From Candidatus Altimarinota bacterium (GTDB lineage: Bacteria > Patescibacteriota > Gracilibacteria > CAIRYL01): 64,000 nt of DNA. Location of the stretch: NCBI GenBank assembly GCA_965250085.1, contig OZ252287.1, positions 160,001-224,000 on the forward strand. The letters run 5' to 3'. The notes beneath the pieces are model-generated. The model saw nothing but the letters and a program-made list of their open reading frames with translations. It made no database searches and had not been told where the DNA came from. Both the position numbers and the translations under genes were made by a program. Positions 36,434-53,412 of the stretch are shown piece by piece. Position 1 is the stretch's first letter, and the number at the start of each line of letters is the position of its first letter.

Positions 36434-37558
36434 TTATTCTTCCCCATCCGGAATATTGACTCCATGGCGATTGATCAGTTTCCGGAGAGCTTCTTTTTGT
36501 TTTTTGAGGAATTTGGTTTGTACGTCTACGATAATCGCGGTTTCTTGTACTTCATTTTTCCAGTATTCGGCAGTAGAAGTGCCCAAGACAGCAAACACTG
36601 AAGCATCAATATATTTTTCTCCTTTCAGAATCTCTTCAGTAATTTTTGATTGTTCTTCTTCCAGGCTCAAAAAGGCATCGTTGAGTTGGTCTTTTTTGAG
36701 AGCTGCATTTTCTCTCTTGGCTCTTGTCCCCTCTTTATCGTCTGTGAAGTAATCCTGCAAACCTCTTCTCGCACCTGCGTTCTCCTCTTGGCTTCCAAAA
36801 TATCGCTCATAGTCCAAAAGCTTTGTGAGAGAATTATTTTTTATCCAGCTCGACGCTTGTTTTTTTGCCTGTTTTTGTATTCCCTTTCGAGTTTCCCCGG
36901 AAAAAGCATTCTTCCAGCCTTGCGTCTTCAAAATATCCTTCCATTTGGGTCCGGTTGTCAGTTGTTTAATTTTGTCTTTAAGCTCAGAGAACTTTTGAGC
37001 AATCAGTGATGTTTTTCCTTCTCCTCCTCCCTCGCAATTTGCTTTTATATATTTCTCATCAAAGTACACACTCTCTTCGTGTCTACTGCAGGATCGTAGT
37101 GTGGCGATTTCTTTTTGCAAATCATCAATTTCATCCAGATATGTAGGAGTTTTGAGGGCAATCAGGCGTATAGCACTGAGCATATCTTCCAAATCATTTA
37201 CATCTTTGCGAATACAGGCAGATTTTCCGAGGAGCAAAAATGTTTCCTGAAAGTACAGTCGTGTCGAAAATGACCGCAGCCGAAACTCACTGCGCATGGA
37301 GATGTTGTCAGTACTTTGGTTCAGTACCAGGCTCTGCTCATGTTCGACAGTGATTTTTTTAAGAAGCTCTTTTGCTTTATATTCAATGGTCTGAAAAGCC
37401 GCTTTCTCAGAGCCAGCAAATTTTTCATCATATGTCTGCTGATAGGTTTCAGTAAATGCTTCGCACTTTTGCGGTATTTTGGCAGATGCTTCTCCCAGAA
37501 AAGAAAAACTTGCAAAAAAGAGAAAAGTGCCAAGGATGAAATATTTTTTAAGCATCAT
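36434..37558 (-). CDS. secreted helical Cys-containing hypothetical protein (last gene of giant-protein operon)
   Basis: Signal peptide (M)LKKYFILGTFLFF..ASA; ATGA overlap with upstream stop. Confidence 0.8.
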   Translation of the reverse strand: MMLKKYFILGTFLFFASFSFLGEASAKIPQKCEAFTETYQQTYDEKFAGSEKAAFQTIEYKAKELLKKITVEHEQSLVLNQSTDNISMRSEFRLRSFSTRLYFQETFLLLGKSACIRKDVNDLEDMLSAIRLIALKTPTYLDEIDDLQKEIATLRSCSRHEESVYFDEKYIKANCEGGGEGKTSLIAQKFSELKDKIKQLTTGPKWKDILKTQGWKNAFSGETRKGIQKQAKKQASSWIKNNSLTKLLDYERYFGSQEENAGARRGLQDYFTDDKEGTRAKRENAALKKDQLNDAFLSLEEEQSKITEEILKGEKYIDASVFAVLGTSTAEYWKNEVQETAIIVDVQTKFLKKQKEALRKLINRHGVNIPDGEE

Positions 37559-39108
37559 TTTTTGGAACAATGGGGAATATCATTTAGAATGGAAGTCATG
37601 TCAGGAATCTGGTTGGTGAAATCAAAAAAGTCATTTTTGAGCCTTTGCAGCTGAAACTCTATCTCCCGTGCAAATTCGAGATGTTCTTCCAGATACAAGT
37701 ACCGCTCAATATCACTGGGATCTCCAGCAGTGGAAGAGAGTATCTTGTGTATGCTTTCTTCAGAGATTTCCTGGTCATATATGGTACAAAAATCAAAAAT
37801 TTCTTCTTGCGTTTGTATACTTTCTGGCGAAAGTTTGGGGAGGATATTGCAGTCGGTTTCAAAGAGTATCTGTGCTAATTTGTAATTTGCAGATTCTCCT
37901 GTATCCGGGCTCTGAGTGGTGCTTTCGGTGATATCTTTTTCTTTGTCTTCCAGTGGTGTTTTACTGCGGTAGTTCAAGAATGGAACTTTCTTGGGAATGG
38001 CATTAAAGTCCATGCCTATTTTTCCAAACAATGAGTTATTATCCTTAATGACATAGTTTTCGTTACTGGCTTTTTTTGGCGTCTCTACGGTGTGGTCGAG
38101 GAGAGAAAGCACTTCATATCCTCTCTGTATCATGCACTCTATACAGGCTGGAGTTTCTATCGGTGCAAGTGAAAATCCCTGTCCAGGTCGTATTTCGGTA
38201 TAGACACAAAACAAATCTTTACAAAACTCCGGAACACAATACATGCCATTAAACAGGGGGACAGCTCGTTCGTTTTCTCCGCAAGTGTCTTGAGGATCTT
38301 TTGCCTCATGCTGTGGATATGTACCTCTCAAAAAATCTGATCTTTCTCCGGCAAGGTCTGGAAGTTCTCCAGGAACATCAGAAATATTTCCCTGATCTGG
38401 AAGGAAAATATTATCTTCATCTGAGGAATGAGAGCCATCAAATGAAGTCAGAAAGAGGGCATCAGGATCTTCACAAATATTTCCAGAAAAATCTCCATCC
38501 CCATCACCGTCTCCATCTCCTCCTGATTCGGAAGGATCTTCTATGGTGCTTCCTTCAAAAGAATCTCCTCTTCTCAAGCCTGCAACAATGTCAGCATATC
38601 GACGTGATCTGCCATCATAATAGACTCCGGGGATGTATGCAGGCGGTACGGTCGCATTGGGTCCAAAGAGCAGGACATCCAGGACATTCAAATCCACGAT
38701 GATATCAAAAGTACTATCGGAAAGCGTGCCATTACTCCATCTGTTTCGAGCGGCATTTTCTTCGGTGAGAATATATTCATACGATGCCAGGAGTTCTGCA
38801 GAGGCAAAGAGTTTCTGAAATCTTTGCCAGCATATAAAAGAGCTTCCCCTGTTTTTTTCTTCCAAATCACTGCAAAAACTGAGTTTCCCCAGATCTTTGA
38901 GTTTGGGTGCAGAGGTTCGCAGTGCCTGTATATCACTGATTTCTACACCGGTCTGCAGAGCCAGTCGTTCGGATGCCATTTGATCTGGTTTTATCTGAAT
39001 ATCTTCATAGATCCGTTGGTACAGATTTTCTTCTTCAAATGCTGTAGCAGTGCCTATTGCACTGAATGCAAAGAATGAAATGCCGAAAAGGAAGAGGAGT
39101 TTTTTCAT
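37555..39108 (-). CDS. secreted Cys-rich hypothetical protein
   Basis: MKKLLFLF signal peptide; multiple Cys incl. CVPEFCKDLFC and CIEC; GDGDGD acidic linker. Confidence 0.85.
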   Translation of the reverse strand: MKKLLFLFGISFFAFSAIGTATAFEEENLYQRIYEDIQIKPDQMASERLALQTGVEISDIQALRTSAPKLKDLGKLSFCSDLEEKNRGSSFICWQRFQKLFASAELLASYEYILTEENAARNRWSNGTLSDSTFDIIVDLNVLDVLLFGPNATVPPAYIPGVYYDGRSRRYADIVAGLRRGDSFEGSTIEDPSESGGDGDGDGDGDFSGNICEDPDALFLTSFDGSHSSDEDNIFLPDQGNISDVPGELPDLAGERSDFLRGTYPQHEAKDPQDTCGENERAVPLFNGMYCVPEFCKDLFCVYTEIRPGQGFSLAPIETPACIECMIQRGYEVLSLLDHTVETPKKASNENYVIKDNNSLFGKIGMDFNAIPKKVPFLNYRSKTPLEDKEKDITESTTQSPDTGESANYKLAQILFETDCNILPKLSPESIQTQEEIFDFCTIYDQEISEESIHKILSSTAGDPSDIERYLYLEEHLEFAREIEFQLQRLKNDFFDFTNQIPDMTSILNDIPHCSKK

Positions 39109-39113
39109 AGATA

Positions 39114-52221: not shown

Positions 52222-52230
52222 AGTATACCA
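52222..52230 (-). promoter_or_regulatory. extended -10 promoter of giant-protein operon
   Basis: TGgTATACT on minus strand, 6 nt before an ATG at 52215. Confidence 0.55.
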
Positions 52231-52338
52231 AAAATAATACCCTTGAAGAAGGGTTTTACCTCTTTTTAGAGCCAAAAATCACAATTTTTAATTGATAAAA
52301 CACTTAAAAATGTCAAAATATCCATAATTTAAAAAAAT

Positions 52339-53412
52339 TTAGAAGAAATTTGGCAGAAGAAGCTTGCATTTTCCTTTCTCTCCATCTACTGATTTTTCAA
52401 TTTTATTTCTCACAGAAGCTGTTTTCTTCTTGAGAGACCTATATTTTTTACGAAGATTTGTGTCTGTTATTTTGTTATGAAATAAACAATCTGAGAGATT
52501 TGCACTCTGCAGAAAATCAGAAATTTTGGGACGTGATGCAAATGCCAAAAACGGTGTTGCAGAGAGCATACTCAGGATCGCTCCGTGAAGGCGATTGGTT
52601 ACTACAAATTTTGCAGAAGTGATGCTTTTGCGCACTTCATCTAAATCCTTGGCTGTTAACAGGGGTATTCCCCACTCTTCTGCCAAAAAAGCGTCTTTTG
52701 TTTGCTCTGTTTGTAACGGAAGAAGCGAAACTTGTTCTCCATTTTTTTGTAAATATCTTGCAAATTTTCTTATTTCTGCAAGCTCCCGGGGAGCAAAATC
52801 TTCTTTTCTGAGTATAAAGAAGATGCCTTTTTTCTGAACATATGGTTTCTTTTTTTCCGGCAATAAAAAACTAAAGTCTGTGGAGAGATTGATTCTTTGT
52901 TCTGAGACACCCATTTTTTTGAGAATTTTATATGAAGCTTCATCTCTCAGAGAAAAAAATGACACATGGGCAAAGAGTTTTTGCGTTCTCTTCTTCGCAT
53001 GTTCAGAAACAAATGGTCCTAATGAATTACCGGCAAGGAGTATCTTTTTATCCTCTCGAATACATTTTGTGAGATAAGAATTCCAAATTTTGAGAGCCTT
53101 TTTGGGTTGCTCTTGGAAAAGCCCTCCTCCTCCAAAAATCACATAATTGGCTTTTTCTAAAGCTCTATATGCTTTTTTAGAGTCCCCAGTATATGCTCTC
53201 CATATCTTCGAACACACACCTGAGTGCAAATGAGGTGCAGAAGAGACTTTATGATGACTCCTAGTAAATGCAGGCTGGTGAGACATTACTGTCACCTTCC
53301 ATTTCTTTTGGTCAATGCGTTTGAGTAAACCAGCCAAAATGGCCTCATCCCCCCAATTAGGAACCCCATAGTGCCCGATGATAAGGATATTATTATGAGA
53401 GCTATGTTTCAT
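52339..53412 (-). CDS. csaB: polysaccharide pyruvyl transferase (CsaB-like)
   Basis: GHYGVPNWGDEAIL, GGGGLFQ, SLGP, RDEAS, RLHGAI. Confidence 0.85.
   Translation of the reverse strand: MKHSSHNNILIIGHYGVPNWGDEAILAGLLKRIDQKKWKVTVMSHQPAFTRSHHKVSSAPHLHSGVCSKIWRAYTGDSKKAYRALEKANYVIFGGGGLFQEQPKKALKIWNSYLTKCIREDKKILLAGNSLGPFVSEHAKKRTQKLFAHVSFFSLRDEASYKILKKMGVSEQRINLSTDFSFLLPEKKKPYVQKKGIFFILRKEDFAPRELAEIRKFARYLQKNGEQVSLLPLQTEQTKDAFLAEEWGIPLLTAKDLDEVRKSITSAKFVVTNRLHGAILSMLSATPFLAFASRPKISDFLQSANLSDCLFHNKITDTNLRKKYRSLKKKTASVRNKIEKSVDGEKGKCKLLLPNFF

Follow-up and report, generated by a model that had tools for sequence, protein, structure and literature searches.

Does the giant gene in a 64,000-nucleotide stretch of a Candidatus Altimarinota genome (contig OZ252287.1, positions 160,001 to 224,000; hereafter the window) belong together with the small secreted proteins encoded directly behind it, and if so, what might they form on the cell surface? 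Seven consecutive, co-directional open reading frames (ORFs) on the minus strand span positions 36434-53430 of the window. An earlier note had read them as a candidate surface machine composed of the pyruvyl transferase CsaB, a giant protein anchored to the cell wall by SLH domains, and four coupled secreted proteins (here partners 1 to 4, in gene order). Comparison of sequences across the class gives good support for a surface module composed of the giant and its four partners. We put at about 0.5 the probability that this module is a wall-anchored extracellular assembly, probably serving attachment. The module occupies 15.8 kb, or approximately 1.2% of a 1.37-Mb genome (single contig, 97% complete) in which it has a single match; the genome is that of a very small bacterium that probably depends on a host, and the named database relatives of the window proteins are Candidatus Peregrinibacteria.

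The evidence that carries the module is its conserved gene order. Searches with tblastn of the loci of four relatives revealed matches to all six window ORFs, in the same order, in genomes G004 and G014; in G001 and G005 the order was seen in part, the loci being cut by contig ends. A further 20 loci (16 using the standard code and four in which TGA is recoded) were picked by hand from a class-wide list for their spread over families and their long contigs. In 13 of the 16 standard-code loci, four ORFs with signal peptides (judged by eye on the translations, here and throughout) lie directly 3′ of the giant gene, with sizes of ~200, 230-350, 490-670 and 340-460 aa. One more locus (G031) has three such ORFs after the giant, which brings the giant-adjacent block to 14 of the 16. 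In the remaining two genomes no small ORFs adjoin the giant; the four genes are found elsewhere, together and in the same order, with E values of 3.3e-21, 7.5e-28, 9.3e-53 and 4.7e-26 in G032, and 7.2e-29, 1.4e-36, 2.4e-67 and 3.9e-40 in G384. The persistence of this order away from the giant argues, on comparative grounds, that the four-gene block is one unit, usually joined to the 3′ end of the giant gene. The co-occurrence and synteny that the earlier note had asked to see were therefore found, with the order kept across many families of the class.

To avoid circularity, homology of the small ORFs was also assessed with partner profiles built from 14 other genomes, with the window left out. 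These match partners 1, 2 and 3 of the window with E values of 8.9e-13, 8.7e-26 and 1.8e-32, and each matches none of the window's other six proteins. The corresponding profile of partner 4 missed the 378-aa window protein. A close profile of partner 4, which includes three close relatives, aligned with this distant profile with a probability of 97.7% (E 2.5e-12) and shared Cys positions, against 1.9-22% in three control comparisons; it also matches the fourth ORF of G012 (E 3e-22). Overall, at least 12 families share the order, with proteins that are only 14-37% identical. Searches with single sequences of the fast-evolving partners reach little: partner 1 found homologues in five of 41 genomes, and a word-based search with partner 3 returned three proteins.

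The defining part of the giant, a 761-residue core, was detected in 289 of 401 genomes of the class (~72%), which comprise 249 of 342 good-quality genomes and 168 of 229 genera; the partner 3 profile gave 260 of 401 (~65%), 219 of 342 and 158 of 229. The two patterns run parallel by family. Neither protein was found in the 12 genomes of family f18 or the eight of f20, and in f9 the core gave eight weak matches among 64 genomes and partner 3 none. Both occur in all 14 genomes of f25. The counts for core and partner 3 are 15 and 16 of 16 in f27, 25 and 30 of 31 in f12, 61 and 51 of 64 in f13, 31 and 21 of 31 in f23, and 28 and 25 of 28 in f30. We take this co-occurrence as a pattern and not as a statistic, because the genomes are related and the recoded lineages lose weak matches.

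When 1.84 billion representative proteins were searched exhaustively by profile, 698 contained the core at E<=0.001, and 367 did so at E<=1e-30. Almost all of the 698 are giants, with flanks that vary strongly in length; among the 150 best matches, most measure 2,000-6,066 aa, and those below this range resemble fragments. The matches include lineages with many in-frame TGA codons, of the recoded Gracilibacteria/Absconditabacteria type. In the recoded genome G326, the profiles of partners 2 and 3 match ORFs just 3′ of the giant; in G052, G119 and G363, a homologue of partner 3 is encoded well away from the giant, with a signal-peptide ORF of ~410-440 aa behind it. The locus of G015 (L044, G015:C1) carries a further giant ORF with a signal peptide (11164-19338), located ~3 kb 3′ of partner 4; this ORF runs off the fetched stretch, so its length of >2,724 aa is a lower bound.

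The features of the locus are listed in the following table.

Table. Features of the giant-gene locus (window positions, unless a locus of a relative is named)
Feature	Position	Strand	Remarks
Pyruvyl transferase (CsaB-like), 363 aa	52339-53430	-	ORF list; Pfam and NCBIfam matches
Terminator-like hairpin followed by a T-run	52239-52254	-	in the 140-nt gap between pyruvyl transferase gene and giant gene; weak evidence
Single giant gene, ~3,889 codons	40530-52198	-	split in the deposited sequence by one missing base, GG run 50061-50062
Giant gene, 5′ ORF, 726 aa	50018-52198	-	ORF list
Giant N-terminal hydrophobic segment (signal peptide or signal anchor)	52090-52198	-	TTG start; by eye
Giant gene, 3′ ORF, 3,175 aa	40530-50057	-	ORF list
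Family-defining core (761 residues)	43908-46190	-	residues 1290-2050 of the 3,175-aa ORF
Invariant CxxC	44703-44714	-	Cys1782 and Cys1785 of the 3,175-aa ORF; end of long helix
Pro-rich stretch, LPxLP-type repeats ending in PPPPK	44358-44645	-	residues 1805-1900 of the 3,175-aa ORF; conserved
Three tandem SLH domains	41088-41651	-	residues 2803-2990 of the 3,175-aa ORF; Pfam
Partner 1 (s241), 241 aa	39800-40525	-	ORF list
Partner 2 (s227), 227 aa	39114-39797	-	ORF list
Partner 3 (s517), 517 aa	37555-39108	-	ORF list
Partner 4 (s378)	36434-37570	-	378 aa from TTG 37570, or 374 aa from ATG 37558
DUF4215 in partner 3 of a relative	L059 6677-8662		28.2 bits (above cut-off)
DUF4215 in partner 3 of a relative	L047 10466-12484		21.7 bits

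The junctions within the window also speak for a module. As the earlier note had described, the two ORFs of the giant gene overlap by 40 nt (50057/50018), the next three junctions are gaps of 4, 2 and 5 nt, and the ATG start of partner 4 overlaps the stop codon of partner 3 as ATGA (37558/37555). In G014, the five genes overlap stop to start. The earlier note's reading of the N-termini was likewise borne out: a short basic stretch and a hydrophobic run of the Sec type open the 726-aa ORF and each of the four small ones, while the 3,175-aa ORF starts without them. The ORFs of 462 and 328 aa located 3′ of partner 4 were rejected as members of the module, as neither has a homologue in any related locus; the 462-aa ORF also lacks a signal peptide.

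The giant is encoded by two ORFs in the deposited sequence, which raises the question whether it is one protein. Independently assembled contigs from four public sequencing runs (all from one sample of one study, from which the genome itself may derive) each span positions 49000-51000 in one piece, and their sole difference from the window is one extra base behind position 50060, which turns GG into GGG on the gene strand. This base fuses the frames (713 + 1 + 3,175 = 3,889 codons); what divides the gene is therefore an error or variant of one base in the deposited sequence and not biology. The orthologues in G004 and G014 are single ORFs of 3,967 and 3,921 aa, in agreement with the ~3,900 aa given in the earlier note, and that of G004 likewise begins at a TTG codon. 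Along the G004 ORF, homology continues unbroken from the last part of the 726-aa frame to the first part of the 3,175-aa frame, with the switch just before the residues aligned to GPNIKNIF of G004. A programmed -1 frameshift at the T-run within the overlap (T TTT TTG) was rejected, because the frame switch lies upstream of this run and the contigs simply have one more base. Any annotation built on the deposited genome will list two proteins for this one gene.

What defines the giant family is the core, in which a Cys-rich N-terminal part is followed by a bundle of long helices, the invariant CxxC motif, the Pro-rich stretch and, towards the C-terminus, a helix that contains an invariant Cys. 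In an alignment of 40 core sequences, both Cys residues of the CxxC (columns C493 and C496) are invariant, as is one further Cys outside it; the core Cys residues include Cys1920. The Pro-rich stretch contains 12 invariant and 11 nearly invariant Pro columns. An AlphaFold2 model of the core reached a mean predicted local distance difference test score (pLDDT) of 65.4 and a predicted template modelling score of 0.45. Its confident parts are a very long helix bundle (model residues ~320-490), a beta hairpin and the Pro-rich stretch, which is predicted to be extended (block pLDDT ~62-88).

The core has no match to any Pfam, NCBIfam or PDB entry. A Foldseek comparison of the model with the PDB gave no match at E<=0.001 among 494 at E<=10, and with VIA-align against 48,161 chains the highest Z was 7.7, short of Z>=8, all hits being generic helical hairpins; as these fold searches used one 761-aa model of partial confidence, they are not decisive for single domains. 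In the ESM Atlas, the best feature score for the core part (0.78) was at chance level. About two thirds of the giant, the core included, resembles nothing known.

Outside the core, the only firm match of the giant to a known family is provided by the SLH domains. The three copies claimed in the earlier note were recovered as three stretches of PF00395 with 92.8 bits (101.1 bits on the C-terminal segment); within the 3,175-aa ORF, their motifs are TRAE (starting positions given as 2841 and 2975) and SRAE (2912). The region matches the SLH chains of Bacillus anthracis Sap in the PDB (E 3.4e-7), and all S-layer matches cover the SLH part only. The Ig-like, FG-GAP/VCBS and calcium-binding segments proposed in the same note stood in part: when the window giant was scanned against Pfam as 12 overlapping segments, they remained below the cut-offs (Glyco_hydro2_C5, which is Ig-like, 26.7 against 32; FG-GAP_3, 22.7 against 26.9; TSP_3, 14.1 against 25), whereas FG-GAP_3 (52.7 bits) and TSP_3 (39.9 bits) are above cut-off in the G004 orthologue. 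In precomputed annotation, other family members carry DUF11, Invasin_D3 and TSP3_bac, and many carry PF13517; their database labels are hypothetical, DUF11-, SLH-, VCBS- or FG-GAP-containing protein (of Peregrinibacteria, Gracilibacteria or Patescibacteria), so that members not called hypothetical take their names from the flanking repeats.

The four partners are all secreted, to judge by their N-termini. Partner 1 is helical and has seven Cys residues, one of them near its C-terminus; partner 2 is helical as well; partner 3 opens with a helical domain that contains a conserved DSxFDLIVDLN motif, and also has an acidic middle of low complexity and a cluster of Cys residues. In their last 80 columns, partners 1 and 2 may be distantly paralogous, as hhalign gives a probability of 81.9% there (E 1.1e-5); the remaining nine profile pairs that were compared are unrelated (<=36%). 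No C-terminal hydrophobic segment or membrane anchor is visible by eye in the partners of the window.

None of the four window partners matches a Pfam or NCBIfam family. Among 67 partner homologues searched against Pfam there were four weak matches, one of them above cut-off (the DUF4215 Cys-rich repeat, in a partner 3). Comparison of the partner profiles with PDB sequences gave best E values of 0.33, 0.037, 0.12 and 0.14, all of them coiled-coil-like noise. For partner 2, the best ESM Atlas hits (DUF5045, 0.79, followed by CagL, 0.75) were at chance level, and the AlphaFold2 model of partner 3 was poor (pLDDT 52.2). DUF4215, a Cys-rich repeat of the Myxococcus type, occurs in the variable middle of partner 3 in two relatives; weak similarity of Cys-rich Peribacter proteins to the same repeat is noted in the available part of an earlier account (PMC4736985).

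The earlier note had described all of these proteins as rich in paired Cys. This holds for some of the small ORFs (2.9% Cys in partner 1, 2.3% in partner 3, 1.8% in partner 2 and 1.1% in partner 4, compared with 1.0% in the long ORFs of the window) and not for the giant (0.8%), whose Cys pairs are clustered. The majority consensus of all four partner alignments has a Cys within the last few columns, at a position conserved in fewer than 90% of the sequences.

These features can be joined into one mechanism. The giant and its four partners would be produced together and would assemble outside the membrane into one cell-surface structure. Near its C-terminus, the giant would be tethered by the three SLH domains to a pyruvylated cell-wall polymer, which a CsaB-like enzyme would make in trans for ~20 SLH proteins. 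The ~3,500 residues N-terminal to the SLH domains, including the Ig-like, FG-GAP-like and calcium-binding-type segments, would project outward, and the core, with its helix bundle, CxxC and Pro-rich stretch, would be the docking site for the four partners. Having no anchor of their own, the partners would be retained at the cell through binding to the giant. The links between partners and core may be disulfides, because each partner carries a conserved C-terminal Cys in most lineages. Attachment to another cell or to a surface is the most likely role. That the apparatus is stoichiometric and serves host attachment, penetration or a bridge, as the earlier note had it, is a further step that we, too, would only infer.

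A thioredoxin-domain protein with an N-terminal extension of ~70 residues is encoded 3 kb downstream on the same strand (window 32814-33335, minus strand). It could be an exported disulfide oxidoreductase, of relevance to extracellular Cys residues.

Several observations weigh against a wall-anchored assembly of the giant with all four partners. The C-terminal part of the giant is devoid of SLH domains in four of the 16 standard-code loci and in all four recoded ones. Of the four recoded genomes examined, none yielded partner 1 and only G326 yielded partner 2, while the giant is kept. In the window itself, partners 2 and 4 lack the C-terminal Cys, and the adhesin-type domains of the giant all fall below the Pfam cut-offs. 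The 20 loci were chosen by hand and are not a random sample, and the co-occurrence counts overstate the support, related genomes not being independent.

The same arrangement could also be produced by dedicated maturation factors, i.e. four small proteins required in small amounts for extracellular folding, disulfide formation or wall insertion of the giant without being subunits of it. The position of the block directly after the giant in 14 of 16 standard-code loci would suit such factors, as would the conserved Cys residues in both the partners and the giant core and the helical, anchorless nature of the partners. We nevertheless consider this explanation unlikely: no thioredoxin, DsbA, peptidyl-prolyl isomerase or other chaperone family was detected in the four partners or in the 67 homologues, four separate conserved families exceed what such a role usually needs, and translational coupling favours matched amounts.

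A wall-anchored assembly leads to the question of the anchor and of the enzyme that serves it. The 363-aa protein was called CsaB in the earlier note. Its assignment as a pyruvyl transferase stands (PF04230, 105.9 bits against a cut-off of 25.3), whereas its score in the NCBIfam model for CsaB equivalogs is below the cut-off (TIGR03609, 154.3 against 213.1 bits). We could not uphold its place in the machine, as the gene is unlinked to the giant in most relatives, is separated from it in the window by a hairpin, and has ~20 SLH frames to serve. Of 41 relatives, 36 have a CsaB-like gene, with one match each apart from G025. Among the relatives that allowed both genes to be placed, it lies at 438 kb in G012, 298 kb in G015 and 1,372 kb in G036, with the giant at ~1,168, 185 and 1,156 kb, respectively; in G014 and G005 separate contigs carry the two, and only in G004 are they close (~3 kb, on opposite strands). 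The hairpin adds little, as scans for terminators and promoters over the region were at chance level overall (20 sites, with 15.0 expected and a standard deviation of 3.6). From these positions, the pyruvyl transferase gene is a neighbour of the module here and not part of what is conserved.

In the window genome, 40 SLH matches are distributed over 20 different open frames, and the CsaB-like enzyme therefore serves many proteins. Twenty such frames in 1.37 Mb point to an unusually heavy reliance on SLH anchoring for so small a genome. One of them, located outside the window and ~80 kb away (G000:C1:290585-290902), is a second giant frame of 3,779 aa; it is a different giant, because the core search gave a single match in the genome. 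The Arg residue of TRAE-type SLH motifs binds the pyruvate group of the wall polymer, according to the accessible part of a structural account (PMC6081394). The recoded giants (loci L049, L050, L051 and L058) keep the core and have no SLH domain, and, judged from the sequences compared, SLH wall anchoring is not universal to the giant family. A CsaB-like gene was not found in three sampled representatives of families f10, f13 and f23, and f13 and f23 are among the families whose core matches carry in-frame TGA. Together, these observations imply that recoded lineages may use a different mode of anchoring.

With an SLH anchor, the giant could also be the main protein of an S-layer-type coat, with the partners associated with this coat and a structural role in place of host contact. 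The anchor is that of classical S-layer proteins such as B. anthracis Sap and Paenibacillus alvei SpaA, or of SlhA, in having three tandem SLH domains with Arg-bearing TRAE-type motifs. There is also a CsaB-like gene in the genome, next door in the window; in B. anthracis, csaB is reportedly located beside the S-layer genes. A single match in the genome, a nearly class-wide distribution and a strongly conserved core would all fit a coat protein. The differences are considerable: the SLH trimer of the giant is situated near the C-terminus of a 3,889-residue mosaic, the protein has a class-wide core without known match and four co-encoded secreted partners, and its SLH domains are dispensable in parts of the family. 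To our knowledge, lattice-forming S-layer proteins do not resemble a ~430-kDa mosaic of many different modules. In addition, ~19 other SLH-bearing frames in the genome could serve as a coat, and the length of the giant varies strongly across the family (2,000-6,066 aa), as is usual for adhesins. S-layer genes do exist in the related Peribacter, as stated in the part of that account available (PMC4736985); on balance, we regard a coat as rather improbable.

The earlier note recognized no component of known secretion or pilus machinery in these proteins, and our searches agree: the seven proteins gave no such match at E<=0.01 (Pfam) or E<=0.1 (NCBIfam), and the only trace of a type II, IV or VI secretion system component was one chance-level match to TrbI (E 0.12) among the giant segments. 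A parallel in composition is that of the PilY1/PilC-type adhesins with their four minor pilins (FimU-PilVWX), in which a very large non-pilin is likewise combined with four small exported proteins. By this analogy, the module would be an accessory of type IV pili, with the giant as a tip or base adhesin and the partners acting like the minor pilins do for PilY1. In some lineages the block does adjoin pilus genes: PilC is encoded 1-2 kb upstream of the giant, on the same strand, in two of five other complete genomes (G189 and G207, where the giant start was computed from match positions and not from fetched sequence). In the window genome, PilC (PF00482) is encoded at 670.5 kb, 460 kb away from the giant (200-212 kb); in G012 the distance is ~20 kb, on the other strand, and in G015 and G036 the genes are unlinked. 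On these positions, the linkage is lineage-specific. Moreover, the partners do not look like pilins. Their N-termini (MKK, a hydrophobic run and Ala) are by eye those of ordinary signal peptides and not of prepilins, no pilin family was matched by the four window partners (Pfam, NCBIfam) or by the 67 homologues (Pfam), and the giant has no PilY1-family match in the Pfam scans. A pilus accessory is thus a distinctly improbable explanation.

The reading that has least in its favour, already disfavoured, is that the genes are neighbours without common function, for although related genomes share gene order by descent and the evidence for a link is comparative throughout, the order persists in at least 12 families despite identities of 14-37%, the four-gene block moves as a unit, and the flanks differ (csaB is unlinked, and the ORFs 3′ of partner 4 are without homologues in related loci).

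Giant surface proteins have precedents. Very large exported proteins, thought to act in attachment, have been described in Peribacter (Peregrinibacteria) and Vampirococcus (Absconditabacteria), where they reach 3,861 and 4,163 aa and some are annotated as integrin/FG-GAP or DUF11 proteins (PMC4736985, PMC8080830; available parts of both). These parts contain general remarks only and name no conserved core, four-partner block or operon. The giant genes of Omnitrophota, in the portion of the preprint at hand (bioRxiv 10.1101/2023.11.21.568195), are similar in that giant surface proteins of small, possibly predatory bacteria are encoded beside conserved neighbours. They differ in belonging to another phylum and in their neighbours: upstream these resemble type II secretion genes, and downstream they are pilZ and transport genes, no such neighbours being seen here. 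In the full-text literature searched, as far as its accessible parts extend (including PMC11452946, on Gracilibacteria metaproteomics; supplementary tables, which could list the genes, were not covered), neither the core nor any of the four partner families nor the operon was found described. Surface proteins that are wall-anchored and come with accessory proteins are a known kind of system; the novelty lies in the core, in the four partners and in their fixed arrangement. Where published accounts speak of giant surface proteins and pili in general terms, a concrete module is defined here. The core and partners are specific targets for experiments, and the core alignment is a possible marker family for host-range comparison.

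A bolder reading, which we hold as tentative and on the whole doubtful, is that the module represents the core of an undescribed extracellular organelle of the ultra-small bacteria of the Gracilibacteria class (Peregrinibacteria and their TGA-recoded relatives), in which a giant scaffold, with four disulfide-linked subunits on its helix bundle, CxxC and Pro-rich stretch, would hold, and perhaps breach, a host or prey cell. If this is true, the variable outer modules of the giant would set the host range.

Beyond the seven ORFs, the window encodes ribosomal protein L19 (53465-54187, minus strand), with the Pfam match covering residues 10-116. It carries a Glu-, Lys- and Ser-rich tail of ~120 residues, making the protein about twice as long.

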